NCBI GenBank assembly: GCA_963749145.1
Contig: CAVVLN010000002.1
Span: 272,952 to 336,951 of the forward strand
Source: an uncultured Actinomycetota bacterium
GTDB taxonomy: Bacteria > Actinomycetota > Actinomycetes > Streptosporangiales > Streptosporangiaceae
DNA: 64,000 nucleotides
Reading direction: 5' to 3'
A program made the translations under genes and the position numbers. The notes under the pieces were generated by a model. It saw nothing but the letters and a program-made list of their open reading frames with translations. It ran no database searches and was not told where the DNA came from. The first letter of the stretch is position 1; every line of letters begins with the position of its first letter. Shown in pieces: positions 3,483 through 37,063 of the stretch.

Positions 3483-3497
3483 CGAGCGCCATGCTGC

Positions 3498-13504: not shown

Positions 13505-14091
13505 CGGCGACGTGAGCTGGCGCGGCTCCACGGTCTCGACCACCACACGCCCCTCCTTGTCGAGCGGAAGCGTCCGCGTCAGGCAGAGGACACTCCACTG
13601 GCCAGGCCCGCTCATTACCGGGTGAAGAAGGGACGGATCTCCCGCGCGACGATCTCGGGCCTGCCGCCGCCGGGTTGGTGCCGCTGGGTCGCTGGAGCCG
13701 CCGTGGTCCAGGCCCGGGAACTCAGCGCGCCGGCTGTCTTCTGTCACAACCTGTGACGTTACTGGAGCCTCAAGTGTCGGCAGAGCTGATCCGACTGGTC
13801 ACAGTCGGCTTCGACTCGACCCGCGGATCAGAGGCCAGCAAGACCCACCCGACAGCGGTCCTCTGGATGTCCGCTCGGACAGCATTCGGGAAAGACTGAC
13901 ACTAACTTACAGTGGCTGTGTACTCTCTACGAGTGACTGTTACAGATGCTCGCACTGCGTCGCGGAGTCGCCTGTGTGGGCAAGGATTCCAGAATGCAGA
14001 TCTGGGCTCCGCTTGGGTCACAGGCCTTAGGGCCGCCCGCGGCATTCGTCCCGTATCGGCACCGCACTACGCTGGATCGGACGCCGGATAG

Positions 14092-15191
14092 ATGCTCGAA
14101 ACCGGCAACAAGGCGTTCCTGGCGGGGTGCGTGGCGCACGACGCCACTGAACGAGTGCTTCTGCTCACCCCTTCTCGGGGGCTTGGCGGCGGGATCGAGC
14201 GCTACGCGGGGACTCTTCAGTCGGCGTTCGCCACGCAAGGAATCGAGTGTCGCCGTATTGACCTTCAAGGCTCGGGCGTTGCGGCCCATTCGCGGCTGTT
14301 AGGCCAATCCCGTGCCGCGCTGCGGGGGACTCGAGAGTAGTCCGCCTGGTTGTGCTGCACGTGGCCCTTCTGCCGACGGCCTGGCTGGTCGCCAGAGAGC
14401 GAGTTGTGTCAGGCGTTTCGGTGCTTTGCCATGGAGCGGACGTATGGTCCACTCGGCGTCCCGTGCGTCGGCGAGCCGAGCACTATTTCCTGCGGAGACC
14501 TGGTGTGCGGGTACTTGCCATGAGTAGCTTTACGGCGGGCGCCCTCTGCGGAACCAGCCCGGCGTCCGTCCTGCCGTCGGGCATGTCCAAAGAGTGGTTT
14601 GACACGCTTGTCAGAGCCTCCGCCACCGGTCGGGACCGGCGGCCGGGAGTCAACATCGTCACCGCGTTTCGTCTGAACGCGTGGCGGGAGAAGGGACTGC
14701 CCGAGCTGATGGGTGCCGTTGCCGCGCTGCGCCGGTCCGATATCCACCTGACCGTCTGCGGCACGGGAGAGGCGCCATCGGAGTTGCATCGGGCGGCGCA
14801 GAAACACTCATGGTGTACCTTGCGGCCTGGACTCACCGACTGCGAACTCGCCGGCGAACTGGCGGCGGCGAATCTATTCGTGCTAGCCACCAGGACCAGG
14901 GCTGGCCGGCGAGCGTCGGGCGAAGGTTTCGGTGTTTCCCTCTTGGAAGCTCAGGTGGCCGGGATCCCGGTCGTAGGACCCGCATATGGCGGCTCGCCTG
15001 ACGCGTACATCGACAGAGTCACGGGAGTCGCGCCGCTGGACGAGAGCGTCGCCGCCCTAGCGAAGACCCTCGACAGCCTGCTGAGCGAGCCCCATCGTTT
15101 GGAGCGGATGGGCAGGCGCGCCGCCGAGTGGGCTCGTGAATGCTTCGCCCCTGAGCGCTATGCGCAGCTTGTGGTCGCGAAATTCCTCTGA
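14092..15191 (+). pseudogene. GT4 glycosyltransferase disrupted by a frameshift (or by a sequencing indel)
   Basis: The N-terminal part (14092-14337, VLLLTPSRGLGGGIERYAGTLQSAF) and the C-terminal part (14352-15191, EGFGVSLLEAQVAGIPVVG) are in different frames. The C-terminal frame is open back to about 14283 (SRVVRLVVLHVALLP). The switch coincides with the GGGGG run at 14324-14328. Confidence 0.75.
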
Positions 15192-15265
15192 CTCCAAATC
15201 AGAGCGTGTGCTAGGCAACATGAGCGGCTGTTCGCGTTCATGCTAGTGGTACGCCGATAGCGGCC

Positions 15266-15820
15266 TCACCCTGTGGCAGTGACGGTCCACAGGATGAGAC
15301 CGACGGCGGCAAGGAGATCGTCGACCACGGCGTCAGCATCAACACCTGCTTTGCCGTCGGCCCGGATTAGGACGGTCGCAGTGCCCGCCGAGCGGCCTGC
15401 CATGATGTCATCCTCGCTGTCACCAACGATGATTGCCGTCTCCAGTTCGAATCCATGCTCACGCGCCGCGCGCCGCAGCATGCCGGAGCCGGGCTTGCGG
15501 CAGTCACAGGTGGCTAACGCATGGGGGCAGTGGTAGGCCGCGTCGAGCCAGGCGCCTTCAACTGCCAGGAGCTGCGTGAGGCGGGCGTGGACGGCGTTAT
15601 AGCGCGCAGCATTCCCTGGTGACCTGGATAACCAGCGTTGGTTGGTAACCAGGACAGTCCGCAGGCGGGCCGCATTGAGCGCGGCCACTGCCTGGGCCGC
15701 GCCTGGCAAGAGCACCAGGTCAGCGGGTGAGGTAACGTAATCGCCTTCGGCGGCCTTGACATTAATCGTTCCGTCTCGGTCGAGGAATATGGTGCTTATG
15801 CCAGGCTGGAGCGCGGACAC
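15266..15820 (-). CDS. gmhB: D-glycero-D-manno-heptose 1,7-bisphosphate phosphatase (HAD-IIIA)
   Basis: HAD motif I is FLDRDGTIN. The family-specific motif CDCRKPGSGML and motif IVGDSEDD are present. 184 aa. Confidence 0.85.
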   Translation of the reverse strand: MSALQPGISTIFLDRDGTINVKAAEGDYVTSPADLVLLPGAAQAVAALNAARLRTVLVTNQRWLSRSPGNAARYNAVHARLTQLLAVEGAWLDAAYHCPHALATCDCRKPGSGMLRRAAREHGFELETAIIVGDSEDDIMAGRSAGTATVLIRADGKAGVDADAVVDDLLAAVGLILWTVTATG

Positions 15821-15824
15821 GGGT

Positions 15825-16442
15825 TCAGGACTCTTTCACGAACAGCGCTGCCTCCACCATCTCGCAAATCGTGTGGCCTAAGTGCATACACGCCTCCTGA
15901 ACCCGGCCGGTGTCGTCGCTGGGAACCCGGATACAGATCTGGGCAACGGTCGCTGCCTTCCCGCCACATGCACCCGTCAGCGCGACTGTGGTGATCCCGG
16001 CCCGTCTTGCCGCTTCAAGCCCGCGGACAACGTTGACTGAGTTGCCTGACGTGGTAAGCCCGATCACGAGGTCTCCTGGCCGACCAGCGGCGAGTACCTG
16101 GCGGGCGAATACGTCATCGTAGGAGTAGTCGTTGCCGATCGCGGTCATCGCGGCTGTGGCGTCCGGAAGGCTGATTGCGGCTAGCCCGGGACGATCGAAA
16201 GCGAACCGGCCCATAAGCTCAGCGGCTAGGTGTCCGGCGTCCTGCGCGGACCCGCCGTTGCCGAAAAAGATCACCTTTCCGCCAGTGCGGAGGCACCTGA
16301 TCGTCAGTCGCGCGACCTCGACAACTAACACCGAGAACGGGCCTTCCACCATCTGCTGCTTGACAGCGATCGCCTCTGCCAGCCGCGCCCGCGCCAGCTC
16401 CGGACTTGGCGTCACCACGTCCGACTCGCTCACACCGGCCAT
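15825..16442 (-). CDS. gmhA: Phosphoheptose (sedoheptulose-7-phosphate) isomerase, SIS domain
   Basis: The inner ATG (complement of 16440-16442, MAGVSESD) overlaps the hddA stop by 13 nt. Motifs FFGNGGSAQDAGHLAAEL and TTSGNSVNV are present. The longer ORF to 16673 would overlap hddA. Confidence 0.85.
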   Translation of the reverse strand: MAGVSESDVVTPSPELARARLAEAIAVKQQMVEGPFSVLVVEVARLTIRCLRTGGKVIFFGNGGSAQDAGHLAAELMGRFAFDRPGLAAISLPDATAAMTAIGNDYSYDDVFARQVLAAGRPGDLVIGLTTSGNSVNVVRGLEAARRAGITTVALTGACGGKAATVAQICIRVPSDDTGRVQEACMHLGHTICEMVEAALFVKES

Positions 16443-17446
16443 GTCGTTAATCCCTTGGTGTCGAAGGCGATCTCCATGACGTCGGCGCCCGCGAATTCGA
16501 GGGCTTCTATTACGCGATGCTTCTTCGTAAAGTCGCAGAACAGCAAGATATAGCCGCCGCCACCGGCTCCAGTGACTTTGCCGCCCAGTGCGCCTTTGCT
16601 CAGAGCGAGCTCGTACAGTTCGTCGATGCGCGCGTTTGAAATCAGGGGCGACAAGCGTTTTTTCTGGCTCCACGCCTCGCCAAGCAGGGCGCCGAAGTCC
16701 TTTAATTCACCGGTTAGGAGCGCGGCCTTCATAGCGACTGCCAGCTCCTTCTGAGCCCGCAGTCCGGAGAGCGTGTCGTCCGTGGACGCGGTGGCCCGCC
16801 GGGTCTGGTCCTCGATCACTCGTGCAGAATCCCGCGTGATGCCGGTGAAGCAGAGCAGCAGACTGAGCTCGAGCTCAAGCATGATCTCATCGCGGATGCG
16901 GAGCGGGTTAACGATCACCCGGTCGGTGAACTCGATGAAATTGAAACCGCCAAACGTGGCCGCGTACAGATCCTGAAGACCGCCAGCGATGCCAAGGTCC
17001 TGACGCTCGATGGCGTGCGCCAGCTGAGCGGTCTGGTAGTCACCTAATGCCATCTTGTAGTGCCTGGCAAGCAGTCCCGTGAGAGCAACCATCATGGTCG
17101 ATGATGAGCCAAGCCCTGAGCCTGGCTGGACACTGGAACGCAGAACCAAGTCGTATCCGTCTGTGCCTTCGCTCCCGAACCTCCTCACAGCAGCCTTGAT
17201 GAGGTCCAGGCTGCCATCGCAGAGGATCTCGTTGTCGAGCGTCATCTGCGCAGTGGTCTTGAAGTCCACCGACTCAATCGTGACGACGCGATCGGTCCGA
17301 GGGACAAGGGAGCCGTATGCATAGCGGTCGATGGTCGCACATAGGACGCAGCCACCTTCGAGCGTGGGAAATGGTGGTACATCCGTGCCGCCTCCGGCAA
17401 ACGAAACTCGAAGCGGTGCTCGGGCTCGGATCGGTGGACGCGTCAT
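16430..17446 (-). CDS. hddA: GHMP-family D-glycero-alpha-D-manno-heptose 7-phosphate kinase
   Basis: N-terminus RAPLRVSFAGGGTD, GHMP motif PGSGLGSSS, and C-terminal GGKVTGAGGGG. 338 aa. It sits directly upstream of gmhA and gmhB. Confidence 0.8.
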   Translation of the reverse strand: MTRPPIRARAPLRVSFAGGGTDVPPFPTLEGGCVLCATIDRYAYGSLVPRTDRVVTIESVDFKTTAQMTLDNEILCDGSLDLIKAAVRRFGSEGTDGYDLVLRSSVQPGSGLGSSSTMMVALTGLLARHYKMALGDYQTAQLAHAIERQDLGIAGGLQDLYAATFGGFNFIEFTDRVIVNPLRIRDEIMLELELSLLLCFTGITRDSARVIEDQTRRATASTDDTLSGLRAQKELAVAMKAALLTGELKDFGALLGEAWSQKKRLSPLISNARIDELYELALSKGALGGKVTGAGGGGYILLFCDFTKKHRVIEALEFAGADVMEIAFDTKGLTTWPV

Positions 17447-17879
17447 TAGGATTCTACTCCGAAAGGTTAGACCACAAATGAGTGGTTCCGGAAGCGATCA
17501 TGACCGAGGGTACTTGTCGCTTTTAGCATCAGACTCAGCCAAAGAGACTTTGCGCACGGTCGAGCGCGCGCCAGCGTGCAGTCGCCGACCACCTATTCCC
17601 GGCCGTCACCTCTGTCGCCTTCCTTGGACGTATCTGGACGTACATCTAAAGCGCGCCTAGTGGATAGAGCAGGAATCACGTCCTGGAGATATATGACAAA
17701 GTCTCTCAACATGCGAATATGGGCGTCTCATCGAAAGCGATCTGCTGTTAAGGCTAGATCACTAGCCGGTTCTTAGACAAAATGACCACATTCGTATCCC
17801 AGTGCCTGGCCAGCGACGGTTCGCCTGGTCCTGGTCCTGACTCCCCGAGCGATGTGCCTTGACTGCCCCTCCTCGTAAT

Positions 17880-18782
17880 CTAAGTGCCATTGCTTATAAG
17901 TGGACTTATCCGCGATAGCATCGTTCGTGAGATCGCCAGTATATTCGTAAATTCCTCTGGTAGTTCATGTACTGATCTCAGCGCCAGATGAACTCTGCCC
18001 GTTACACGATTGCGCATTGCGCGAATCTCGAAGAGGCAGTATCCGCATTCCTTGAGGTGCTCGAAAGGGCTCTCGGACGCGCTGTCCAGCAAGTGTGGCG
18101 CGTATTCAAAAATTACTGAGGGAGAATGCTCATCGATCACTCGTGATGCACCTCTGATAACAGGCATCTCGTAACCTTCAACGTCGATCTTCATTAGATT
18201 CACAGGAGAGTCAGCTATATCGTCGATGGCTACCGTGTCAACCATTACGCTTGACCCTGTCAAAGTCGAATGAGGGATTACACTCCCACTAAGTTTCCTC
18301 GTGTCCAGGTCACCGGGCCGATGCAGGACCACGCTGTCCCCACTCCGATCGGAGGCAGCAGCCTGAATTAACCTTAGATTTCCCAAACAGTTCAGGGCGA
18401 TGTTCTTGCGAGTTCGGTTCGCCAGCTCTTCGTCGGCTTCAATAGCGATTACGTTCCCCCTTGTGCCGACCAATTTGGCGAGGCGGATTGCGTGAATCCC
18501 AACATTTGCGCCCACGTCTATACAATTATCGCCTGGCCGGACTAGGTATTCAAACAGCTCAGCGATATGACCCTCAAAGGCGCCGAAGACCCACACATAC
18601 CACTCTAGGAAGCTGGATAGGTCGACTTCGAAGTCATCGCCGAACCTGTTCGTCGATCGTTTAATTGATTTCCCAGGTTGACAGGTTAACTTGTCATATG
18701 ACCTATTTAGTAGCCTAGCGAAGCCGCGAAGTGCTACGCGTTGGCCAAGAGCGGGCGCTAGGGGGGCCGTGGCGAGGCGCAT
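17880..18782 (-). CDS. FkbM-family methyltransferase
   Basis: Motifs CIDVGANVGIHAIRLA and LMKIDVEGYEMPVIRGA. Codon usage is markedly AT-rich relative to the flanks. Confidence 0.85.
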   Translation of the reverse strand: MRLATAPLAPALGQRVALRGFARLLNRSYDKLTCQPGKSIKRSTNRFGDDFEVDLSSFLEWYVWVFGAFEGHIAELFEYLVRPGDNCIDVGANVGIHAIRLAKLVGTRGNVIAIEADEELANRTRKNIALNCLGNLRLIQAAASDRSGDSVVLHRPGDLDTRKLSGSVIPHSTLTGSSVMVDTVAIDDIADSPVNLMKIDVEGYEMPVIRGASRVIDEHSPSVIFEYAPHLLDSASESPFEHLKECGYCLFEIRAMRNRVTGRVHLALRSVHELPEEFTNILAISRTMLSRISPLISNGT

Positions 18783-19084
18783 GCCTCGTACGGTACTCGC
18801 CCTAGACTCAATCCACCGCGTAAATGCGGATGATCGTTTCCGGAGCTTGCTGAAATATGGTCCTGATCTTGACCGAGGCTAACTGGTTAGGCCGGATGTG
18901 CGGTGAGCTCCAGACGGATTCGTAGAGTCTCATCCATTCCTGCTTGTGGCGCCAGCTTTCGGGGCAAACGCAGGTAATGCGGCCGCAGGCGATGCGGTAA
19001 GCGATCGCGTATCCAGCCCACCCAAGCCAGTGTACTCAGTGAGAGATTTCGTATTCACCCACGAGGCTGTTCGGTGTGGCGAGC

Positions 19085-19300
19085 CCGAAGCTTGGGTCAC
19101 TGATGCTGAGCGGCCAGGAGCGGCAGGTCCTGCAGGGATGGGTGCGGCGGCGCAAGACGTCGCTGGCGCTGCGCTCGCGGATCGCGCTGGCCTGCGCCAA
19201 CAGTGGTGGCCCGGTCGCGGCGGTGGCCACTGGCCTGGGGTGTCGCGGGATACGGTGCGCAAATGGCCGTCGCGGTTCCTGGCGGTCCGGCTGGAGGCAA
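19085..19300 (+). mobile_element. IS630-family transposase N-terminal (HTH) fragment, frameshifted
   Basis: LSGQERQVLQGWVRRRKTSLALRSRIALACANSGGPVAAVATGLG continues in another frame as VSRDTVRKWPSRFLAVRLEA. This is the typical IS630 N-terminal helix-turn-helix region. No catalytic domain follows. Confidence 0.55.
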
Positions 19301-19584
19301 CATGCCGTGGATGATTGCAGCATGATTGCTGACGTTTCGTCACCATCTGAGTCTTGGTTGGCGGCCGTTCTTCTAGCTTTAGCCGCCACAGCGTACAGTC
19401 TCAAGCTAAGCTGTACACGTGCCAATCACGGATACAACGTTTGCGATGAAAGGTGTACCAGGTCTTTCTCAGCCTGTGGCGTTCGGCTCGAGCTATCTCG
19501 GCGCCTCGCATGTCGCGTTTCTGGCCAGAGTTGGCTTTGACATTCTTGGCCTTGGCACCACCGCCCGGCGGATCAGTTACTGAC

Positions 19585-20397
19585 ATGGAAGTGCATGACT
19601 TGAAGGCTGATGTCCGCAAGTTTTGGGACGCGGGGTCGTGTGGCGAGGTGTACGCGGAGGGGCTCACCATTGAGGAGCGTTTCCGCAGGCACGCGGAGGC
19701 GCGTTACCGCCTTGAGCCCTACATCCGAGGCTTCGCCCGGTTTGAAGAGGGCACAGGCCGGGATGTCCTTGAGATCGGCGTCGGCATGGGTGCCGATCAT
19801 TTGGAGTGGGCAAAGAGCGGACCGAGCCGCCTGGCCGGCGTTGACCTCACCCCTCGTGCCGTGGCCTGGACCACTCAACGGCTCGCCACCTACGGGTTCG
19901 CGTCCGAGGTAAAGGAGGCGGATGCCGAGCGCCTTCCCTTCCCTGACGACTCGTTCGGCATAGTCTACTCTTGGGGTGTACTTCACCATGTTCCTGATAC
20001 GCCTCGGGCTTTCCGTGAGGCCTACCGTGTACTTCGACCGGGTGGGACAATCCGCGCGATGATTTACCACCGTCCATCCATCGTCGGGCTGATGCTTTGG
20101 GCCCGCTACGGGCTCGCCACAGGGCACCCGGCCCGTAGCCTTACCGATATCTACGCCCGCCACCTGGAGTCCAACGGAACCAAGGGTTACACTGTTGCTG
20201 AGGCCCGGCGTCTGGTTACACCATTCGGCGCCAGCGAGATTCGCAGTGCGGTTAGCTTCGGCGACCTGCTTCAGGGCGAGGTAGGCCAGCAGCACTCCAG
20301 CCGTGGACTCACGATCGCCAAGCGGCTCTGGCCTCGACCGCTGATCCGCCGGTTGTCGGCGCTCGGGTTGTACCTCCTGATCGAGGCCAAGAAATAG
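19585..20397 (+). CDS. Class I SAM-dependent methyltransferase (type 11)
   Basis: The inner ATG at 19585 begins MEVHDLKADVRKFWD. Motifs are VLEIGVGMGAD, PFPDDSFGIVYSWGVLHHV and LRPGG. Confidence 0.85.
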   Translation: MEVHDLKADVRKFWDAGSCGEVYAEGLTIEERFRRHAEARYRLEPYIRGFARFEEGTGRDVLEIGVGMGADHLEWAKSGPSRLAGVDLTPRAVAWTTQRLATYGFASEVKEADAERLPFPDDSFGIVYSWGVLHHVPDTPRAFREAYRVLRPGGTIRAMIYHRPSIVGLMLWARYGLATGHPARSLTDIYARHLESNGTKGYTVAEARRLVTPFGASEIRSAVSFGDLLQGEVGQQHSSRGLTIAKRLWPRPLIRRLSALGLYLLIEAKK

Positions 20398-20510
20398 TGC
20401 CCAGATTGTGCGTCTCTAATACGGCCGCGGTGGCGCCGTGAGCGCGGCGAGCCAGGTCGGCCGCGTAAACATTCATCCCGCTTGCGCTGGGTGACGCTCG
20501 CTGGTTGTGA

Positions 20511-22145
20511 TCAGGTGGGCGCCGGAAGCGGAGGCCGCCACGGCGCCCCGGTCATGGCGCTGCGCAGGACGTCCATGACGTTTTGGCCGTGCTTGCGGGC
20601 GGTGTCGATGTAGCTGCGGATGTCGAGGCGGTCCTGGGTGGTGTCCTCGCTGGTGAGCCGCCCGGAGATCTTCTGCTGGGTCTTGGCGGGGCGGACGGCG
20701 CGCTCGCTGATGTTATTCGATCCCGCTGTCGACTACGCGTGATGCGGGTGCTGAGAAGCATCGGGTCCGTCAACTTAACGGACGGACGGGCCGGCTTCAC
20801 CCTGCTGCGCCACCGCATCCTCCTCGGATTACGTCACATACTGTCACCACCGAAAGTGCGACAGAGCCGTTAAAATTACAGTCCCGCGCCAGATCGTTGG
20901 TCGGCCAGATCCTGGTGTCGCGGGTGAACCGCAGGACGTCATCTTGGTGGCTGGAGCAGAATTCCAGCAGGTCCCGGCCGGGGTGCTGGGCGGTGGAGGA
21001 TTTGGGGCCGGAGACGCGGGGCACGTCAGAGAGCCCGGCCAGCACGGCGTGGCGGAACTCGTGGATGAGCGGGCCGGCAATGTGCGGGGGGATTTCGGCT
21101 GGCCGTCGTCACGGGCAGCGCGCCAGGCGCAGATCAGGGCGCGCAGCGCTCGCTGCGCTTGCACCGGCCAGATGGCGTTCGGGTAGCACTCGGCCGCGTC
21201 CTCATAGTCCCTGATCAAGTGGGCCAGACAGGCCTGATTTCCGGCAATGTGCTCCCAGCCGTGGTGGAAGTAGTTCGCATACCGGTCAGAGACCACGATG
21301 CCGGTGAACGCGGGCAGGACCCCGAACTCGCGGAAGGATTCCAGGGTGCGCCGTCCCAGGAAGAACACCGAATGCCGCTCGGTGACGGCGGCCAGCACGT
21401 ACTTCTTGGTCCCGGCGGGCCCGCACCGCAGCGTGGTCTCATCGAATCCGGCCACATGGGCGGCGGTGATCAGCGTCTTGATCAGTTTGACCACATCCGC
21501 GATCACGGCGGCTGCCCTGGCCAGGCAGGAGTGGACGAAGCCCACCGAGACCCGGGCGCCGGTGACGTCGGCGATCAGCTGGACGCATCGCCCGGCGGGC
21601 ACGTGCTGGAACACCGTGAGATACACCGCCAGGGCGCGGGTCGGGCCGGTGCTCACCGCCGATCCGCCTGCCCCTTCCGGGCAGGCCGCCGCATGCAACT
21701 CGCCGCACCGGCAGCGGGCCTGGTGAAGGTCATGCTGGACGCGGCGTGCTGTCATCAGCGGCACCTCCAGCTGCTGGAACGACCGGACGACACCCAGGTC
21801 CGCCGCGCCGGCCAGGTCCGCCCCGCACCCGCACGCGCCAGCAGGGCGGTGATCGATCACCTCATCGGGTTCCGCCCACGCCATCGACGCGCCCGGCGCC
21901 CCCGGTTGCTTCCCGCGTCCGCGCTTGCTGCCCCCGCCGCGCCGCTCCCGCTTGGGCGGCACCCTTCCCGGCAGGTCATCGGCCGACGGCGGCATCGAGC
22001 AGTTGCCGCTGTTACGGCCCAGCCGGCGCCTCAGCTCCGCGACCTCGGCCCGTAGCTCCCCGACCGACCGCGCTAGCTCACCGATCAGCTCATCCCGCGC
22101 CGCGCATGAGTCGCACCCAGCAGCAGGCGGCGGCAGGCCGGTCAC
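20511..22145 (-). mobile_element. IS66-family transposase, decayed (frameshift plus C-terminal disruption)
   Basis: The main ORF (20844-22145) has the IS66 leucine-zipper/zinc-finger N-terminus and core. The frame changes near 21050-21100, where LAGLSDVPRVS...RFTRDTRIWPTNDLARD continues in another frame. A separate C-terminal piece (20511-20712) reads SNNISERAVRPAKTQQKISGRLTSEDTTQDRLDIRSYIDTARKHGQNVMDVLRSAMTG. The two pieces are separated by about 150 bp of unrelated sequence. Confidence 0.8.
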
Positions 22146-27695: not shown

Positions 27696-27784
27696 ATCCG
27701 ACAGGGTACAGCTGGGGGAACCACCGCTTTCAACTTCTACGAAAGCCGGGGAAACCTCCAGGCCATCGTCTAGTCTTGAAAGCT

Positions 27785-28543: not shown

Positions 28544-29716
28544 TTTCGATCCAGTTGCGCTGTTATGTGCTGACCCCTGTAGTGACAGGTGGCGAAACTG
28601 GGGCAAGCTGACCCTGGGAGGCGCCCGGGAAGGGGGAGTGGCATCAAGATGGACTTGGTGGCGTCGTCCATCGCAACCAAGTCCGTCCGGGCAATAATCG
28701 AGGCACTGATCTACGGGCCGCCGCCCGAAGGTGCTGGTCGGCTCTGACCAAGCCATAATGCAGTGGAAGATCCCGGACCTGACCTGGCTCCGGAAGGCGA
28801 TTCGGCGACCAGATCCGCCACCGTTTGTCTCGGCCATCGGAACCCTCGAGCAGGCTCGGCGTCTTGCCTGGCGACTAGGGCCAGCAGCGCCAGCGCGGAG
28901 GCGGCCCGCTTGTCAAGGTTACGCTTTTCCCAGTGCGGCCACCATCGCGCTCGCGGGGCTGACCGGCGCCTCCTCAGCGCCGGATCGTCCTAGACGATTC
29001 TCGACTTGCCAGGCGGGCGTAGTCATGCCCGGTACACACCATGGCGGCCTGCTCAACCGCGCCGACACCACCAGCGTCACCTTGCAGATCACCGACACCA
29101 GCTGAATGACGGTGTCAGGCTAGCCACCCATCAGCCACGACCGTGGAGGCCACCGCCCGCCGGCCAGCACACCGGTCTGCCGACCAAGTGGTCAAACCTG
29201 ACTGGAAGAACGCCAGCCTTCTCGGCCGTCAATCTCTGCATGTCGAGAAAGATGCCGTATAGAAGGCGCTGACGGGGAAGATCGTTACAGCCAGGGCGCC
29301 ATCGAGCTAGATGTCGAGACATTGTTGTCAAAGGTCCGAGTCGTTTCGCCAGTGCCGACAAAGGGACAGAATCCCGACCGTGGGGAAGAGTCTGGCCGCG
29401 CCGCTGGTTGCGAGCGGGGCTATGTTGTCGAAACTTATCAGTAACTGAGCGCAGTCACATATGCTCTCTGTGTGATGGTGCATCTACGACTTGCGGCGCC
29501 AGGGGCCGGCCACCTTGGCGTGTCGCACGTCGCTTGCACGGCCGAGTTCGGCTTTGACGTCTCGCTTGTTAGCACCGATGCTGCCGGAACGGCATCCTAT
29601 ATGCAAGCGACCTCCGTTCCATGAGCCACGCTCGTTCAATCGAGTCGGTCGTCGGCTTGAAATACGGGGATTGATGTGTGTTGCACAGACGGGCGCGTCA
29701 CATGACGAGGAGATGA

Positions 29717-31147
29717 ATGAGCGCAACGCGGGTGAGCGGGGCAGTTCGTCCGGTGACGCAACCGCGAAGGACACCAGATCGGGCACTCAGGAGTACGTTT
29801 ACCGCGAACATAGCCCTGGCAGTCTTGGCGGCCGCAACGGGAGTTATTTCCGCTCGGCTCCTGCACCCTGCGGGCGAAGGCGAGTTGGCGGCGATCCAGA
29901 CCTGGCCGCTTCTCCTGGGAGCGCTGACCATGCTTGGTCTCGACACGGCGCTCGTCTACTTCATCGCGCGCCAGCCTGAGAGAGGCAGACAGCTTACGTC
30001 AACAGCCGTCCTCATCGGTCTCCTGTCTTCTTTGCTCGTGGGTGCCGTGGCATGGTTCGCATTGCCACTTGCTCTCCGTGCGCAACCGCCGCAAGTAGTA
30101 TCGGCAGCGCGTGTGTTCCTTTTGATCGGAGGGATTTACGCGGTGGTTGGCATTCCCCACGGATCATTGCGAGGTGCCCAGTCGTTCACCGCGTGGAACC
30201 TCTTTCGTATTGCTCCCGGCCTTGCATGGCTGTGCATGCTTCTTACTTCCGGGCTCCTAGGACACCCCAACGCTATCCCACTTTCCCGATGGTTCCTAAT
30301 GGGGAATCTCGTCTGTGGTCTTCCCTTCCTCGTTGTCGTCAATCGGAAACTACAGGGGCCGTTGAAGCCTGACGCTAGGTTCGCGCCTGAAATGCTGCGA
30401 TACGGTCTTCCCTCAGCGATAACGTCGATTCCGCTGACAATAAACCTTCGATTGGATCAGCTGCTAATCATTGCATTTCTTCCATCTCGGTTACTGGGTC
30501 TTTACGTTGTGGCGGTATCTTGGAGTGCTGGGGTCGCGCCGTTGCTGCAAGCCCTGGGGGTTGTCTTGTTCCCCCACGTGTCGGCTGAACGGGATACGGG
30601 CCGTCAGGGGCACTTGCTAGCCATGGCGTTGCAGAGCGGGGCGCTCCTCGCAGCGGCGACGTCGGTGCCGTTCATGCTGCTCGCGCCATTCGCCCTGCCG
30701 TTGGTCTTCGGCTCAAGCTTCGCTCCGTCTATCCCTTGCGCACTCGTGCTGGTCCCGGCTGGTGCCATCCTTGCATGGGCAAGAATCGCTGAGGCGGGAT
30801 TGCAAGGCCTCGGACGTCCGACCATCGTCCTGATCGCCGAAGCGGTGGCAGCCGGGGTCACTCTCGCAGCATTGCCGGTACTTCTCCACGCTTATGGCAT
30901 CTTTGGTGCCGCTGTAGCCTCCCTGCTCGGCTATTCAACGATTGCGGTATTTACTCTCGTCACCATTAGACGCTCGACCCACCAGCGAGTCCGCTCGCTA
31001 GTGATACCAACCTGGCCGGTCACGAAATCGCTATTTGCCCGGAGCGTCTCCCTTCTTCCGGGACGCCACCGTTCTCCGGGTCGCCATCGCTGTCCGAGAG
31101 GTCCGCATCATTTTTCAGGTCGGCACAGTCTGCGAGGTTTGGGTTGA
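29717..31147 (+). CDS. Wzx-type oligosaccharide flippase (MOP/polysaccharide biosynthesis protein family)
   Basis: 476 aa with about 12-14 TM segments. The layout is typical of the family, including the block LRYGLPSAITSIPLTINLRLDQLLI. Confidence 0.8.
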   Translation: MSATRVSGAVRPVTQPRRTPDRALRSTFTANIALAVLAAATGVISARLLHPAGEGELAAIQTWPLLLGALTMLGLDTALVYFIARQPERGRQLTSTAVLIGLLSSLLVGAVAWFALPLALRAQPPQVVSAARVFLLIGGIYAVVGIPHGSLRGAQSFTAWNLFRIAPGLAWLCMLLTSGLLGHPNAIPLSRWFLMGNLVCGLPFLVVVNRKLQGPLKPDARFAPEMLRYGLPSAITSIPLTINLRLDQLLIIAFLPSRLLGLYVVAVSWSAGVAPLLQALGVVLFPHVSAERDTGRQGHLLAMALQSGALLAAATSVPFMLLAPFALPLVFGSSFAPSIPCALVLVPAGAILAWARIAEAGLQGLGRPTIVLIAEAVAAGVTLAALPVLLHAYGIFGAAVASLLGYSTIAVFTLVTIRRSTHQRVRSLVIPTWPVTKSLFARSVSLLPGRHRSPGRHRCPRGPHHFSGRHSLRGLG

Positions 31148-32295
31148 GTGAAGATCTGAGGGTCACAGTCCTCAGCCCGTACCCGTTCCATATGGTGGAT
31201 CAGGCTCGTCAGCTGCACCAGGCAAGGGTTCTCGAGCGCATGGTCACGGCCGTTCCGCGCAGTCGCGTCGGCCTGCCCAGAGAACTGGTAAGAACCCGGC
31301 TCCGCTGGAGTGGCTTCCGGCGGATGCTCCGTCATGCAGTGCCGTGTGCCGACCCGATGCTCAGCCGAGAGGTAATCCGCGATTTCGATCAGTGGGCCGC
31401 TTCCCACCTCGGTGAGCCCTCGGTGGTTAATGGTCTATCGGGGTTCGCTACGGGGACTCTCTCTCGAGCAGCAGCTCGCGGTGTTACCGTCTTCTGCGAT
31501 CGTGGCTCGTGGCACATACTTGAACAGCAGCGTGTCTTGGACGAGGAAGCGGACCGGATAGGTGCTCCTCGAGCGCATTTCGATTCGTTTATCGTCGAAA
31601 GAGAGCTGCGCGAGTATCAGCTGGCTAACCGAATTCTGGTTCCGTCTGAGCAAGCTAGACAGTCGTTCATCCGCCGGGGCGTCGACGCGGGACATCTGAT
31701 GAAGGTCCCCTACGGTGTCGATATCTCAGCGTTCTCGCTGCCTAACGAAGGGCGATGCCGCGGTGCTGTTGTTTCGGTCGCTTCGATTGGTCTTCGGAAG
31801 GGCCATCACCATCTGATCCAGGCGTTCCGCATGTTGAACACGCGGAATGCCAGCCTTACGCTGGTCGGGCCCGTCACCCCGGGGTGGGACAAGCGCCTTC
31901 ACTTGGATCAGGCCGGGGTGCGAACGACGGGCCCGGTCGGCCGCGGTCGCGTAATCGAAGAACTCCAACGGGCGTCAGTCTTCGTACTTGCATCAATTGA
32001 AGAAGGCCTAGCGCTGGTCATCGCTCAAGCGATGGCGTGTGGCCTGCCGATCATTGCGACGGAGGCCACTGGGATCCGAGAGCTCATTACTGACGGGGTG
32101 GAAGGAATCGCGGTGCCGACCCCCCCGGATGCTCAGGCTCTAGCCGAAGCGATGGACTGCTTGTTGTCGGATACCGATAGAGCCGAAGCGATGGGCATGG
32201 CCGCCCGGCGCAAAGTCGAGTCGTTCGGAGGATGGGACCGTTATGGTCGCCAACTGGTGGCAGCTCTCCGCGAAGGGCGGTCTGGACCGTCATGA
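31144..32295 (+). CDS. Glycosyltransferase family 4
   Basis: The C-terminal E-x7-E region is EEGLALVIAQAMACGLPIIATEATGIRELI. 383 aa. TTG start overlapping the wzx stop. Confidence 0.85.
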   Translation: MSEDLRVTVLSPYPFHMVDQARQLHQARVLERMVTAVPRSRVGLPRELVRTRLRWSGFRRMLRHAVPCADPMLSREVIRDFDQWAASHLGEPSVVNGLSGFATGTLSRAAARGVTVFCDRGSWHILEQQRVLDEEADRIGAPRAHFDSFIVERELREYQLANRILVPSEQARQSFIRRGVDAGHLMKVPYGVDISAFSLPNEGRCRGAVVSVASIGLRKGHHHLIQAFRMLNTRNASLTLVGPVTPGWDKRLHLDQAGVRTTGPVGRGRVIEELQRASVFVLASIEEGLALVIAQAMACGLPIIATEATGIRELITDGVEGIAVPTPPDAQALAEAMDCLLSDTDRAEAMGMAARRKVESFGGWDRYGRQLVAALREGRSGPS

Positions 32296-32677
32296 GTCGC
32301 GCACAGTCGAGGATCGTGATAGTCTACGTCTATTTAGTAGCAAGTTCAGTTTTTGCCAACTGGCCGGCCGGTCATCAGTCGAAGCGCCCAAATTCTTCCT
32401 ATACGAGTACTGCCTCGCCAAAGCGTTCGATCAGAGGTTCGGGGCCATCGGCATGTCCCAGTAGCTGCTATATTTGTTATTTCCGAGGCTCATCCGACGA
32501 GACGCAAGTTAGATGCTACGCAAAAGGTGAAATCGGTGTGTTTGCCGATGCTACTGCAGAATGTCCACTGAGTGCCGTAGCCGACTGCCGAGATGCAGCG
32601 CGGCAACTCTTGGTAGAGAACGAAATCGCTGTAACGGCCTACATTATCGGAACGGCGGTCGTCGCCGTGAGTTATCA

Positions 32678-33652
32678 ATGAAGCGCATGGCTCGAATAGT
32701 TGTCGTCGGGAGATGGGAGAAAGCCGGGTTACGCGATTCCCTAGTCAACGCCTTTAGGCATTCTGGATGCGCCATAGATGTACTCGATTTGGGCCCGTGG
32801 AGTCCAGCCTGGCTTGCATCAGCCGCGATTAGACAACCGATACTCGCTGTCGGATTCCGCCGCGAGTTCCGCCGACGAGCCGACGTCTTGGCAGAGAATG
32901 GACCCACTGACTTCGTCTTGGTCTTCAAGGGTACACTGCTCAACGCGCGTTCGATAGACTACCTCCGTTCTCGATTCGACAGTCCGGTCGTGTGCTGGAA
33001 TCCCGATAGCCCGTTCGATTTTGCAATCTCGAATTGCGGAGCAGGGATTCCTCAAACGATCGGAGCCTACGACGCGTATATCACATGGGCCGATGATGTG
33101 GCGGAGCGTCTGAGCGCATTTGCCTCCCGAGTGTTTGTGATTCCTTTCGCTTGGGACCCCGAGATCATGCGACCAACACCAGGCCATGGAGTGGCTGCGG
33201 GCCGTATTGTTTTCATCGGCACTGGAACTAGGGAGCGGAGCGCTTTGCTGCAAAGGCTGACGCACCTGCGCCCTATGGCCTTTGGCGCTTGTTGGCCAAA
33301 GATTGAGGGAGTTGACATTCGGCCCCCTGTCCGTGGATTGGAATTCTGTAAAATCGTGGGTGAAGCCAAATGGAATCTTAATCTGCTGCGTCCTCAGAAT
33401 GCACTGTCACACAATATGCGGACCTTCGAATTGGTCGGCGCCGGAGGAACCCAGGTGGCTCCGCAGACGGACGACTACCGAAAATTTCTTGGCGATGACA
33501 GCCGAACGGTCCTCTTCCACGGCATGGAGGAACTCGATTCCATCCTCCGGTCGGATCCAGATGAACGAGCTCCTCGGCTGCCAGCCTTGCTTGATGGTCA
33601 CACCTATACCGATCGGGCGCGCCAATTCTTGGCCGACCTCACGGGTTTGTAA
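32678..33652 (+). CDS. CgeB-family / DUF3880-type glycosyltransferase-like protein
   Basis: The inner ATG at 32678 begins MKRMARIVVVG. The C-terminal region HNMRTFELVGAGGTQV...LLDGHTYTDRARQFL matches the CgeB/Glyco_trans_1_2 pattern. Confidence 0.7.
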   Translation: MKRMARIVVVGRWEKAGLRDSLVNAFRHSGCAIDVLDLGPWSPAWLASAAIRQPILAVGFRREFRRRADVLAENGPTDFVLVFKGTLLNARSIDYLRSRFDSPVVCWNPDSPFDFAISNCGAGIPQTIGAYDAYITWADDVAERLSAFASRVFVIPFAWDPEIMRPTPGHGVAAGRIVFIGTGTRERSALLQRLTHLRPMAFGACWPKIEGVDIRPPVRGLEFCKIVGEAKWNLNLLRPQNALSHNMRTFELVGAGGTQVAPQTDDYRKFLGDDSRTVLFHGMEELDSILRSDPDERAPRLPALLDGHTYTDRARQFLADLTGL

Positions 33653-33736
33653 TGTGCTCCCAAATCTGATCACCCACTAAGCGCTGTCTGCCAAAGGTCA
33701 CGATAAGGGCAACATCGGCGATAGAGCGGTATTTAC

Positions 33737-34564
33737 GTGATCTGTCTGACTCGGACAGTGCAGCCGATCAAGGTGTTTGCAGAATGCGCAAGCACTGGTA
33801 TCTTACGCAAACGGCCAGGCGCGGATGAGCTCGGCCCACGGCGGGTCGGTCTGATAACATGGGGCCTCATGGAAACCGCGCGCTGGGAGGAAGCCCAGAA
33901 GAACGAATTGACCATTTGGCAACATACCGTGAATGATGTTGCTGACGTTTTTGCCGAGATTGCGGAGGCTGCCACCCTGGTCCGCTTTGGCAAGAAACAC
34001 GGCCTAGCGGCCGACGCAGCTGTCGTGGAGCTGGGTATCGGACCTATGGGGGTTGGATGGGCGGCGTTTGCCTCAGCTACGAGGGCCATAGGCGTTGACC
34101 CTTTGCCACGGCTCACGATTGCTACGGGTGATGACAGTGTTGACCGATTCGTCGTCGATATCCAGCGGCGGACCGAGTTCCTTCAGGCTGATGCGACCCA
34201 GCGGCTCCCGCTCGATGACGGTAGTTTCGATTTGATCGTTTGCGACAATGTCGTTGATCATACCCAGGATCCTAAGGCGATCTTGGCCGAAGGCCGACGC
34301 ATTATTCGATCCGATGGCCGTTTGCTCTTCGGTGTGAACGTGTTCTCAACCGTTGGACGTCTGAAGTGGCGCCAAGTGACCTGCCGCCTGCATCCTCGGA
34401 GCGCCAATGTCCTGTGCCACCCGCACTCGTTCGTTGAGAGCGACCTTGGCGGGCTCCTATCGAGTGCCGGCTGGGAGATACTCGTGAGGGATGATCACCC
34501 AGGTGCCCGGCAGCGTCTCACGGGGCGTGCCTACCGTGTCCGGGTGGTTGCACGACCCATCTGA
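33737..34564 (+). CDS. Class I SAM-dependent methyltransferase
   Basis: Motifs VVELGIGPMGVG, LPLDDGSFDLIVCDNVVDH and IRSDGRLLF. An alternative ATG start is at 33869 (METARWEE). Confidence 0.75.
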   Translation: MICLTRTVQPIKVFAECASTGILRKRPGADELGPRRVGLITWGLMETARWEEAQKNELTIWQHTVNDVADVFAEIAEAATLVRFGKKHGLAADAAVVELGIGPMGVGWAAFASATRAIGVDPLPRLTIATGDDSVDRFVVDIQRRTEFLQADATQRLPLDDGSFDLIVCDNVVDHTQDPKAILAEGRRIIRSDGRLLFGVNVFSTVGRLKWRQVTCRLHPRSANVLCHPHSFVESDLGGLLSSAGWEILVRDDHPGARQRLTGRAYRVRVVARPI

Positions 34565-35018
34565 CTGTAATTCTTAACTTAACGGTCGATGCGGAGTACT
34601 GATCATGGGCGTAGGCCGTGTCGGCTACGCATCGTCTAATGTCACCTGCCTGCAGGTAGCTAAAGGCGGTTGCACCTGATCAGCGAGCTGCATGTTGGCA
34701 TGTCGGTGATGGCCATGCTCATCACCGCGAGCTGGAAGCTAGGGGTGTGTTGACTGTGAAGCACGTGGAGACCATCGCCGTGGCGGACCGGAACACGCAG
34801 CTCAAGCGCGGACTGTGACACCACTCCTCCAGGTCGCTGGAGCCGCCGTTGGACTGCCTGTTCGCCAGGAGCAGAAGGCGGTCGTGAAGAGTGAAGGCGG
34901 TCGGCGTCAAGGAACCAACTCAGCGTGTCGGAGAGGACGTTAGGGCTATCCGACGGCCCAAACGAGACCGTCGAGCGCACGCACGCGGAGTGCAGCAGGT
35001 GCAGGCGGGGCCTGGCCA

Positions 35019-35864
35019 GTACTACAGTCCCGTTTCGTGACCTGATCATGGCTCACGCTGGGGAGGCCCGGAGCCGGGTCTGGTAGTGGTGGTAGCGGGC
35101 GCGGGCCTGGTGCCGGCGCCGCCATCTGGGCCAGGCGTAGCCGAGTTGGCGGGCGGCATGGCTGATGGGCGCGGTGGCCCAGGTGCAGCAGGCGGCGGGC
35201 CTCGGGCACGCTGACCTTGACCATGCCGGGGTCTTCGGGTGGGGGCTCGTCCGCGCTGGCGGGAAGGATCCCGGTGTTGGCCCAGCCGGCGGGCTGGGTG
35301 GCCGTGCCGGGCATGGCAGGGTCTGCGGCCTGTGCTAACGGGGCGGGCGGCGGCGGCGGCGAGCAGGGCGAGCGCGCACATGGACAGCACGGTGTGCCGG
35401 TGTAAGGACGGCCAGAGCCGGACCTGGTGGCCGTCGAAGCCTGCCCGCCCTTTTGCCTGCTGGTGACACTCTTCCATTGGCCATCTGCGCCCGGACGGGG
35501 GACCTGCGCCCGCTCCCGGCGCCTGCCGTCCTGGCACCAGGCTTTCGGCAGGTAAAGCCGGAAGTCATACAGCGAGCTGCCAGCACGACCGGCGATCCCC
35601 GCGCTCAGCGAGCAGCGCGCCGAGGTAAGCGAACGCGGTGAAACGTGACCTGGCCTGCGCGAATACCGGCGCGAGCAGGGTGCGCAACTCGTCTTGGAGC
35701 ACTCCCAGCCGACGGCCATCCTCTACGATGACCGCAGCGGCCACCTGCTGATCTTGTCTTCTCACAGAGCACGATCATCCAGGTGGCCGTCCCGCGCTCA
35801 CGCCCAACCCGCCGCTCAGATCATGATCACCCAGACGCCGGCTCACAAACTGGGACTGTAGTAC
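35019..35864 (-). mobile_element. IS701-family insertion sequence, internally deleted, with imperfect terminal inverted repeats
   Basis: Transposase pieces lie in several frames: an N-terminal piece RSRFTAFAYLGALLAERGDRRSCWQLA, then LYDFRLYLPKAWCQDGRRRERAQVP, then MEECHQQAKGRAGFDGHQVRLWPSLHRHTVLSMCALALL, and the C-terminal signature WRRRHQARA. The ends are GTACTACAGTCCCGTTT (35019...) and its inverted copy AAACTGGGACTGTAGTAC (...35864). Confidence 0.7.
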
Positions 35865-35960
35865 CGGGGGGGTCGGCAGTGCGCACGGAGCGTCTTCAGC
35901 GATGGGATGTTACCCGGTCCTAGCAGTACTCGCCTAAATTAGCTACAGGGCACACCAGAA

Positions 35961-36926
35961 TCAGTGCGGTCTCCCCAGCAGCCAGTTGAAATAGTCATCG
36001 GGGTCGAATGGCGCGGGATCGGGTGCGAGGTTCACAGTCAGGGCTCGTTCGGTAGCATCTCGGAGTGAGTCAGCGTCGCCGACGGTGAATCCGCATAGCG
36101 CCGGACCGGCGATCTCCTGGTTCTGGGCGGTGTTGCGGGCGATGACTGGCTGGCCGTTTACTCGTGCCTCGGCGAGCGGAAAGCCGAACGACTCGAGACC
36201 AGGGGGAAAGTAGATTGCTCGGCTTCGGCCCCACAATAGGCGCAGGTCCGCTTGGGACAGCTTTCCTACAAGTTCGATCCGTGGATGATTCGCGAGATCA
36301 TCTGGTAGCTCCCCCTTGTCGGCTGTCACGAGCATACGCACCGACGGATCGATGTGCTCGTCGACGGCCGTAATCCAGTCCGCAGTGCGTTCGATCATAT
36401 GCTTATAAGGAGAGAATATTACAGGACACAGGATCAAGGGCTCGCGAGGCATCTTAGGGATTGAGTCAGGCGAGACAGGGTTTAGGCGTGGAATGATGCG
36501 GCGCCGCAAGCTCGGCAGGATGTGGCCGACGCGTTCGGCCATGGCCGTAGAGGGCGTGACGATCACGTCTGATCGGCGAGCCGCCATACGTACTATCGGT
36601 GCCCTATACCTGGTCTCGGGTCGAAGCGAGGGGTGGAGATTGGCCCACTCCTTGTCTGTCAGGAAGTCCAGGGGGTTACCCAGTCGGGTCCATCGCTCTC
36701 CACCAGGCATGAGGAAGCTGAGATTGTTGAGGGCGACCCGTCTGCCTCTCGTGGGAATGTTCATCTCTCGACGGAGGAGCCATGCAGGCTCAATCCGCCG
36801 GAACGCACCTATGAGACGGACGTCCTCACGCCCGCTGCGTGCCAGGTACCGATAAAGCTCCTCCCTAAAGCGCCCGGCGCCTCCAGTGGTGCCACCTGCC
36901 GCGTCGACGAATACGGTCGCTGTCAC
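35961..36926 (-). CDS. Glycosyltransferase (GT-B, group 1-like)
   Basis: 321 aa. The C-terminal donor-binding region is PPGLESFGFPLAEARVNGQPVIARNTAQNQEI. Confidence 0.75.
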   Translation of the reverse strand: MTATVFVDAAGGTTGGAGRFREELYRYLARSGREDVRLIGAFRRIEPAWLLRREMNIPTRGRRVALNNLSFLMPGGERWTRLGNPLDFLTDKEWANLHPSLRPETRYRAPIVRMAARRSDVIVTPSTAMAERVGHILPSLRRRIIPRLNPVSPDSIPKMPREPLILCPVIFSPYKHMIERTADWITAVDEHIDPSVRMLVTADKGELPDDLANHPRIELVGKLSQADLRLLWGRSRAIYFPPGLESFGFPLAEARVNGQPVIARNTAQNQEIAGPALCGFTVGDADSLRDATERALTVNLAPDPAPFDPDDYFNWLLGRPH

Positions 36927-37063
36927 GTGCCATCCCTCATCTCATTGATACGCTGGAACTGAACAGACATGGCGGCGAAGGACTCTCCAGGTCCGCTGAC
37001 AGAAATTCATTAGTAGGTGCAAACTGGACACGCAACCACTCAGGCGTGGCAGCCATCTGCATC

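Follow-up and report, generated by a model that had tools for sequence, protein, structure and literature searches.

A low-GC run of glycan genes in an uncultured soil actinomycete is probably the variable arm of a Wzx/Wzy-dependent surface polysaccharide locus

Introduction

When a run of glycan biosynthesis genes stands out from a high-GC chromosome by its low GC content, is it a foreign island, or the variable part of a larger locus? This question is raised by positions 13750-36960 of a 64,000-nucleotide stretch of DNA, hereafter the window, on contig CAVVLN010000002.1 (assembly GCA_963749145.1) of an uncultured Trebonia-like/Streptosporangiaceae soil actinomycete. An earlier note, made from the letters of the window, had read this interval as a mosaic island inserted between two high-GC blocks, assembled stepwise from several donors and encoding an unusual surface glycan.

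The layout in which conserved machinery adjoins a low-GC variable block is the textbook one of pneumococcal cps and enterobacterial O-antigen loci. Bentley and colleagues are said to have described, in 2006, the cps loci of Streptococcus pneumoniae as Gram-positive Wzy-dependent capsule loci. Our results indicate that the interval is likely to be the type-specific variable arm of one such Wzx/Wzy-dependent surface polysaccharide locus, enlarged by cassette insertions. The locus would extend over about 14.1-48.6 kb of the window, plus the gene of a LytR-CpsA-Psr (LCP) ligase at 53.6 kb.

Results

The GC content of the interval is 0.627, against 0.721 on its left (1-13749) and 0.723 on its right (36961-64000). 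A 1-kb profile has GC dropping from 0.73 at 13.0 kb to 0.65 at 14.0 kb and rising again over 36.5-38 kb; the value of 0.70 reached by 37-38 kb agrees with the return to high GC that the earlier note had placed at the oxidoreductase gene (about 36.96 kb). GC at third codon positions (GC3) averages 0.686 over 16 genes of the interval and 0.900 over 24 flanking genes (Mann-Whitney p = 6e-7); tetranucleotide usage, corrected for composition, correlates with that of the flanks at 0.60-0.83 within the interval versus 0.86-0.93 outside it (p = 1e-5). Atypical composition, a criterion for genomic islands, is therefore found when the interval is measured against its flanks. The AT-richer stretch between two high-GC blocks that the note described is borne out by all three statistics on both sides, and the outcome that it had named as fatal, a composition no different from the average, did not occur in the comparison with the flanks. 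The sliding-window comparisons that it had proposed against the whole genome were made against the flanks, where the difference is clear.

The patches that the note had pointed out are all found in the 1-kb profile: AT-rich at 17.0-19.0 kb (0.53-0.56), 27.5-28.5 kb (0.53) and 32-34.5 kb (0.555-0.58), and GC-rich at 21-23 kb (0.70-0.72) and 25.5-27 kb (0.74). Host-like GC3 is confined to three genes of the interval, a Wzy-like gene (0.875), a relic of an IS66-family insertion sequence (IS; 0.82) and a hydrolase gene (0.82), every other gene having a value of 0.46-0.74. The high-GC patch at 25.6-27.2 kb is the Wzy-like gene, of host-like composition, and not a piece from another donor. The one at 20.8-23.0 kb is the IS66 relic and the hydrolase gene, interrupting a cassette that is contiguous in a related locus. 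The interval as a whole is a patchwork whose blocks differ in their history.

The high-GC block on the right (37-48.6 kb, with the LCP gene at 53.6 kb) is predicted from its gene families to be the conserved machinery by which the polysaccharide of this same locus is assembled and exported. The putative initiating enzyme is a WecA/MraY-family polyprenyl-phosphate sugar-1-phosphate transferase (42330-43361, minus strand; PF00953, E = 2e-29; TIGR02380 wecA, E = 1e-17, below the equivalog cutoff). The block also encodes a UDP-N-acetyl-D-mannosamine dehydrogenase (43425-44675, plus strand; NF008286, 547 bits versus a cutoff of 459), a flippase-like membrane protein (44732-46030, minus strand; LPG_synthase_TM), and a Wzz/GNVR chain-length domain fused to a tyrosine autokinase (46344-47894, minus strand). 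The kinase part of the latter scores 169.5 bits against TIGR01007 (cutoff 108); its Wzz/GNVR matches are weak (E = 2e-5, below the Pfam gathering score). A low-molecular-weight phosphotyrosine phosphatase (48144-48590, plus strand; LMWPc, 28.7 bits versus a cutoff of 23.2) and the LCP glycopolymer-to-peptidoglycan transferase (53637-54689, plus strand; above the curated cutoff) complete the set.

Between the initiating transferase and the interval, and likewise on the minus strand, lie a WcaI-family GT4 glycosyltransferase (40985-42531; two overlapping open reading frames (ORFs) in the window, 414 amino acids (aa) in a sibling contig), a heparinase II/III-like protein (39238-40975; split in the window, 571 aa in the sibling, matching no NCBIfam model) and a fused ADH_zinc_N and Gfo/Idh/MocA oxidoreductase (37064-39241; whole, with 724 aa, in the sibling and broken towards its N-terminus in the window). 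After 137 bp this string of WecA-like, GT4, heparinase-like and oxidoreductase genes continues into a low-GC glycosyltransferase gene of the interval (36926-35961). The conserved arm itself encodes neither Wzx nor Wzy. Because the string runs into the interval and the machinery is without Wzx and Wzy, the supposed island would be half of one locus. Together, the two halves contain three of the components looked for in a Wzx/Wzy locus: an initiating transferase, a Wzx flippase, and a chain-length regulator/tyrosine autokinase with its phosphatase.

To place the locus among its relatives, one genome per species was scanned with the oxidoreductase, which returned 61 loci (identity 42-86%). Nearly all belong to metagenome-assembled genomes (MAGs) that bear the label Streptosporangiaceae, Trebonia or uncultured Actinomycetes/Actinomycetota; a few are labelled Acidimicrobiia. 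By tblastn, the phosphatase, Wzz-kinase, WecA-like, GT4, heparinase-like and oxidoreductase genes are conserved across these loci. Beyond the oxidoreductase, the order in relatives is a glycosyltransferase, 1-7 kb of differing genes, Wzy and GT4. Homologues of the glycosyltransferase at 35961 are found there in 27 loci (40-73% identity), directly after the oxidoreductase, those of the Wzy-like protein in 10 (39-58%), and those of the GT4 at 14092 in 21 (49-69%), often directly adjoining the Wzy homologue. The first and the last of these are 0.9-6.7 kb apart in relatives versus 20.8 kb in the window.

What lies on this side differs strongly from one locus to another. The mean pairwise aligned fraction is 0.55 over 10 kb of machinery versus 0.13 (median 0.03) over 10 kb on the other side. 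In 32 of 45 loci the GC content of the variable side falls short of that of the machinery by more than 2 points (means 0.666 versus 0.712). The two loci closest by oxidoreductase identity (L050, 86%; L037, 80%) share no gene of the interval. Some arm types are shared across species, five loci, in a few groups, having more than 90% of the variable arm in common, and the position adjoining the oxidoreductase is filled by other glycan genes in 45 of 45 relatives, with no empty site seen. Since the machinery is conserved, the far side can barely be aligned and the closest relatives share none of the genes in question, the region is best read as the hypervariable, type-defining arm of an ancestral locus. 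The same block in conserved order in all relatives, which the earlier note had given as grounds to drop its reading, is thus not what the 61 loci contain. Its insertion between two high-GC blocks has nevertheless to be given up, as the right block appears to be the machinery of the same locus and homologues of the frame genes are equivalently placed in relatives.

Two further observations concern the related loci. In all 61, the conserved arm contains the oxidoreductase together with its heparinase II/III-like partner. In addition, two oxidoreductase loci (L009 and L050) lie about 18 kb apart on one contig of a single MAG (CAWJGC010000004.1, 921582-961812), with 71% and 86% identity to the query, which suggests locus duplication in some relatives.

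The arrangement of the window, which stems from a metagenome population of soil or peat, recurs in independent assemblies. Both junctions and the interior are found in the same order in contigs of at least three other long-read assemblies in ENA, ERZ25039544 and ERZ25039587 (99.2-99.7% identity to the window) and ERZ25039458 (95.7%). Short-read contigs agree with it too, one of them covering 14324-20646 with 99.97% identity and no indel. Among the long-read assemblies single-base indels are numerous, and for this reason some of the broken genes of the window are probably errors. In this regard, the GT4 gene at 14092-15191 is split by the loss of one G in a G-run at about 14329; as it is intact (366 aa) in two sibling assemblies, this split probably arose in assembly, at the homopolymer. 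The oxidoreductase, heparinase-like and WcaI-like genes are likewise whole in sibling contigs and broken in the window, and pseudogene calls made from the window alone are consequently unsafe. The frameshifts within 38940-39600 and 41660-41900, which are not located to the base and likewise split genes that are whole in the siblings, are probably long-read errors too.

Between the cyclase gene and the first gene of the variable arm lies a non-coding junction (13505-14091) in which GC falls and a six-frame translation gives no Pfam match. The GT4 gene (14092-15191, plus strand) comes next, and then three minus-strand genes attributable to heptose synthesis: a GmhB-type heptose 1,7-bisphosphate 7-phosphatase of the HAD-IIIA type (15266-15820; NF006506, E = 4e-37), a GmhA sedoheptulose-7-phosphate isomerase (15825-16442; NF010546, E = 1e-51; TIGR00441, E = 4e-50) and an HddA D-glycero-D-manno-heptose-7-phosphate kinase of the GHMP family (16430-17446; NF049969, E = 3e-85). 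The three align over their full lengths, each below the curated equivalog cutoffs, and at that level the heptose genes named in the earlier note are present. They are followed by an FkbM-family methyltransferase (17880-18782, minus strand; GC3 0.55), a frameshifted helix-turn-helix transposase relic (19106-19299, plus strand) with weak matches to IS66-TnpA, IS630 and IS481 models, and a class I S-adenosylmethionine (SAM) methyltransferase (19453-20397, plus strand; Methyltransf_11). A truncated IS66-family transposase relic (20844-22145, minus strand; E = 4e-34) and an alpha/beta hydrolase (22294-22986, plus strand; Abhydrolase_6), which belong to the same insertion, separate these from an AsnB-type glutamine amidotransferase (23450-25282, minus strand; TIGR01536, E = 2e-100, above the cutoff).

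The Wzy-like polymerase candidate (25615-27228, plus strand; 537 aa) has about 8-9 hydrophobic segments and a large loop at about residues 285-405, and its homologues occupy a conserved position in relatives. It has no Pfam and no PDB match, and its match to NF046084 (E = 3e-9) is far below the cutoff; what the note had called a Wzy-like protein stands as a Wzy-like membrane protein with a weak family match. Beyond it lies a second class I SAM methyltransferase (27776-28543, plus strand; Methyltransf_23), which has the lowest GC of the interval (0.51; GC3 0.46), followed by 1.2 kb (28544-29716) in which neither a six-frame Pfam nor an Rfam scan recognised a gene or RNA family. The Wzx flippase (29717-31147, plus strand; Polysacc_synt) matches PF01943 and PF13440 above their gathering scores and has 10 hydrophobic segments. 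Three plus-strand genes succeed it: a GT4 glycosyltransferase (31144-32295), a Glyco_trans_1_2 glycosyltransferase without a homologue in the 61 related loci (32561-33652) and a Methyltransf_11 class I SAM methyltransferase (33737-34564), whose ORF is identical in the sibling contigs. An internally deleted IS701-family element on the minus strand (35016-35867) retains frameshifted pieces of its transposase (35340-35732; E = 5e-21 when stitched) and is bounded by terminal inverted repeats of 25 nt (35016-35040 and 35843-35867). The arm ends with the GT1/GT4-type glycosyltransferase, last of the minus-strand string (35961-36926).

Most of the gene content reported earlier was recovered, including AsnB, Wzx and all four methyltransferases (17880, 19453, 27776 and 33737). 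The count of five glycosyltransferase-type genes was too high: four are present (14092, 31144, 32561 and 35961) and a fifth was not found in the interval. The IS701 and helix-turn-helix relics were recovered by stitching reading frames by eye and with NCBIfam models. Two of the three IS families that had been proposed are well supported (IS66 and IS701), and the third relic, the helix-turn-helix one, matches several families weakly and is unassignable to any of them. Six-frame translations of all gaps in the interval gave no Pfam match. The absence of an integrase or tRNA at the borders agrees with our scans, in which no tRNA or Rfam family was found in the window and none of the ORFs scanned had an integrase domain.

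Our comparisons also suggest how the arm became so long. A contig of the same project (L072) carries AsnB (81% aa identity), methyltransferase (80%), FkbM (73%), HddA (92%), GmhA (81%), GmhB (79%) and an intact GT4 (79%) in the same gene order, at 74-80% DNA identity and likewise low GC, without the IS66/hydrolase segment. As this counterpart is uninterrupted, the stretches at 14.1-20.4 kb and 23.45-25.3 kb are one cassette, and the segment between them (20.4-23.4 kb), with the IS66 relic and the hydrolase, was inserted into it later. The cassette is not confined to this lineage. HddA has hundreds of homologues at 79-92% identity, including one of 82% in a Mycobacterium sp., and in both a Mycobacterium sp. 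and a further MAG the HddA-GmhA-GmhB trio belongs to a glycan locus and stands beside transposases.

The second block has a different distribution. Counterparts of Wzx and the adjoining GT4 (29.7-32.3 kb) lie beside the oxidoreductase in L022 and L044 at 64-78% identity and in opposite orientation (Wzx 64-70% in the two loci; GT4 78% in L022), and the methyltransferase at 33737 has a 77% aa counterpart in L059. For the methyltransferase at 27776, homologues of 65-82% come from metagenome contigs alone; those from named organisms reach 57% at most and are in an Acidiferrimicrobium, then Magnetococcales, Burkholderiales and a cyanobacterium. Because sub-blocks recur separately (L072; L022 and L044; L059), stepwise assembly from several sources, as the earlier note had suggested, is supported. 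The traceable donors are other soil actinomycetes and not distant phyla.

These comparisons indicate the history of the arm. An ancestral frame of oxidoreductase, glycosyltransferase, a short variable stretch, Wzy and GT4 has grown some 3- to 20-fold in length through three changes. One was the acquisition or exchange of the cassette GT4-GmhB-GmhA-HddA-FkbM-methyltransferase-AsnB, which circulates in other actinomycetes. The second was the insertion of the IS66 relic with the hydrolase gene into it. In the third, the block methyltransferase-Wzx-GT4-glycosyltransferase-methyltransferase was added, beside which an IS701 element then decayed.

A perfect 18-nt direct repeat, GGTCGCTGGAGCCGCCGT, occurs at the drop in GC (13687-13704) and again just before the IS701 relic (34832-34849). 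Its copies are 21,145 bp apart and bracket 21.1 kb of low-GC DNA. In shuffled sequence a second copy of the word is expected 0.03 times, and by a rough estimate any exact 18-mer pair in 25 kb of this composition about 0.02 times. The surroundings of the two copies share no homology, and the word is absent from all related loci. Its significance is unproven: the repeat may have arisen by chance or may be the scar of a recombination.

The genes of the left flank (a short-chain dehydrogenase/reductase (SDR), a GT4, a methyltransferase, a PTPS (6-pyruvoyl-tetrahydropterin synthase)-like protein and the cyclase) are unrelated in content to the machinery on the right. Its gene order is kept, with 88-97% aa identity, in L068, a Streptosporangiaceae MAG (GCA_035501515.1) whose contig ends inside the cyclase. 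In the synteny comparison proposed for defining the insertion borders, the machinery on the right is conserved in relatives; on the left, the only syntenic relative ends before the junction.

Several features of the outer window deserve mention. The SDR, GT4, methyltransferase and PTPS-like genes form a high-GC cluster on the minus strand (7594-10625), kept in L068, which may encode a pterin- or queuosine-precursor-derived glycoside pathway. The adjoining adenylate/guanylate cyclase-STAND-TPR protein (10712-13504) belongs to a very large family, with at least 8000 candidates at E <= 1e-30, the best 120 of which are about 70% identical; its homologues come mostly from soil metagenomes and Streptosporangiaceae MAGs, some with an added LuxR/GerE domain. 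A cyclase match in L069 was considered as a syntenic relative and rejected as a paralogue in an unrelated context. Two Pro/Thr/Gln-rich repetitive proteins are encoded at 2370-3482 and 6501-7544 (PT repeat; low-complexity PPTNRPSG repeats). At 52540-53577, next to the LCP gene, the window differs from a sibling contig by a strain-level structural variant: a CapD/WbpM-like gene (Polysacc_synt_2), intact with 656 aa in the sibling (L001, 19117-21126), is reduced to its first 125 aa (53203-53577, minus strand), and the remainder is replaced by 658 bp of unrelated DNA. The replacement holds a small ORF whose hydrophobic N-terminus, judged by eye, may be a signal peptide.

Discussion

Our findings argue for the variable arm of a single polysaccharide locus, and other explanations of the same interval have to be weighed against this reading. 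In a classical genomic island, a foreign unit of 21-23 kb would have been inserted between the cyclase and oxidoreductase genes and later decayed. The sharp contrast in GC, GC3 and tetranucleotides with both flanks, the IS relics inside and a perfect direct repeat that would rarely arise by chance all speak for such an event. We nevertheless regard it as unlikely: integrase and tRNA are lacking, the glycosyltransferase at 35961, Wzy and the GT4 at 14092 have homologues in the same positions in many relatives, the Wzy gene is of host-like composition and the sub-blocks are differently distributed among relatives. Moreover, the DNA around the two repeat copies is not homologous and no relative contains the repeat, and removal of the interval would leave the locus without Wzx and Wzy. 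An even smaller chance, very slight in our judgement, attaches to local decay of a dead locus by AT-biased mutation in pseudogenes. Several IS relics, long non-coding gaps (28.5-29.7 kb and 34.6-35.9 kb) and apparent frameshifts in the window would fit such decay, but the assemblies agree on intact and identical biosynthetic ORFs, the sibling contigs do not have the GT4 frameshift, and homologues elsewhere, 73-92% identical, are similarly low in GC.

That low-GC DNA of another organism was misjoined to a high-GC contig is a concern for any metagenomic window, the more so as there are many indels between the long-read assemblies and a number of genes in the window are split. The same order across both junctions in the three ERZ assemblies, the short-read contig over 14324-20646 and the switch from high to lower GC at the same gene in relatives leave this explanation a negligible probability. 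As for the product, the heptose, methyltransferase and amidotransferase genes could decorate a secreted natural product or glycolipid instead of a wall polysaccharide. The mycobacterial counterpart of the heptose trio has been called a lipid glycosylation locus in a genomic island (PMC10906988), and the trio here is also without hddC. On the other hand, the trio lies between GT4 and Wzy/Wzx, near WecA, tyrosine kinase, phosphatase and LCP genes, and no polyketide synthase, non-ribosomal peptide synthetase or lipid-carrier genes were seen in scans of the window; we hold this possibility to be quite improbable.

Some observations do weigh against the interval being the arm of one locus with the product proposed here. 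The reference for composition is the 41 kb of flanks in the window, standing in for the whole genome. The 18-nt repeat brackets the arm and could mean that most of it moved as one piece. In species-level relatives the cyclase is never within 10 kb of such a locus, and as the contig of the one syntenic relative, L068, ends in the cyclase, the left border cannot be defined by synteny. HddA, GmhA, GmhB and WecA all score below the NCBIfam curated equivalog cutoffs, the Wzy assignment is weak, and all biochemical steps rest on family membership. Incorporation of heptose is unproven, since the guanylyltransferase HddC was not found among the ORFs scanned.

With the arm and the machinery taken as one locus, a pathway for its glycan can be outlined from the gene content. 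The WecA-like enzyme would start the repeat unit on polyprenyl phosphate and the WcaI-like GT4 would extend it, with the UDP-N-acetyl-D-mannosamine dehydrogenase supplying a uronic acid. The low-GC arm would supply the features that set this glycan type apart: its four glycosyltransferases would extend the unit further, and its cassette would make heptose as far as heptose-1-phosphate. No NTP_transferase domain was found in the ORFs scanned of the 64-kb window, and none occurs within 10 kb of the heptose trio in L072, L076 and L078. As no dedicated guanylyltransferase is present, activation of the heptose would have to come from an enzyme encoded elsewhere in the genome. Up to four methylations and one amidation by the AsnB-type enzyme, probably turning the uronic acid into an amide, may follow. 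Wzx would flip the unit and the Wzy-like protein polymerise it; the Wzz-tyrosine kinase and the phosphatase would control polymerisation, chain length and export, and the LCP enzyme would transfer the polymer to peptidoglycan. The heptose-containing, methylated and amidated surface glycan of the earlier note is, in this light, a fair prediction.

The pneumococcal cps locus offers a close parallel in layout. It has a conserved block of LCP, phosphotyrosine phosphatase, chain-length/tyrosine-kinase module and initiating transferase, and then a low-GC type-specific block of glycosyltransferases, Wzy, Wzx, sugar-precursor genes and IS remnants that is exchanged between lineages. In contrast, the present locus belongs to a soil actinomycete of 72% GC, its initiating enzyme is of the WecA/MraY type and not a WchA-type Bac_transf, the kinase and Wzz domains are fused, the LCP gene lies 5 kb beyond the core, and the conserved arm adds the heparinase II/III-like protein and the fused ADH/Gfo-Idh-MocA oxidoreductase. 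Fixed flanking genes like dexB and aliA could not be shown here. The enterobacterial O-antigen (rfb) and group 1 capsule loci resemble the present one as low-GC mosaics in a higher-GC chromosome, with Wzx/Wzy/Wzz logic, modular precursor cassettes and no integrase. They differ in that neither Wza outer-membrane export nor, by Rfam, a JUMPstart/ops element is present here, and attachment would presumably be to peptidoglycan by LCP, not to lipid A-core. The AsnB-like protein shares its glutamine amidotransferase and Asn-synthase domains with AsnB-like amidotransferases, such as the WbpS-type ones, of O-antigen and exopolysaccharide clusters, and its gene similarly lies in a polysaccharide cluster that would also make a uronic acid; it scores far below the cutoff of TIGR03108, the XrtA/PEP-CTERM amidotransferase family (286 versus 817 bits).

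With regard to heptose, the four-step GDP-heptose pathway has been summarised (PMC7705670), and GmhA, the GHMP-type HddA and GmhB of that pathway occur together here. In Mycobacterium tuberculosis, rv0112-rv0115 correspond to gca, gmhA, gmhB and hddA; hddC is not among the listed genes, as here, and the region is regarded as horizontally acquired (PMC10906988). In the window, by contrast, the order is hddA-gmhA-gmhB, a gca (GDP-mannose dehydratase) gene is lacking, and the trio shares a Wzy-dependent locus with the linked genes of an FkbM methyltransferase, AsnB and a GT4. A more far-reaching idea, which we consider doubtful, is that the hddC-less HddA-GmhA-GmhB(-FkbM-AsnB-GT4) module might be a mobile serotype-conversion cassette, reaching as far as mycobacteria, within a pathogen-like capsule-switching system of fixed machinery and interchangeable low-GC cassettes in soil Treboniaceae/Streptosporangiaceae, with heptose activated by a housekeeping nucleotidyltransferase or in a novel way, and with the 18-nt repeats as scars of site-directed exchange.

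The findings presented here alter no principle; they describe a known architecture in a little-studied actinomycete lineage. They suggest that the capsule and O-antigen design of fixed machinery and low-GC cassettes also operates in the abundant, almost uncultured actinomycetes of acid soil and peat. The map of this locus and the 61 comparable loci may serve the study of how surface glycans diversify, for instance under phage pressure, and a widely shared actinobacterial heptose cassette without a nucleotidyltransferase of its own would bear on the role of rv0112-rv0115 in M. tuberculosis.

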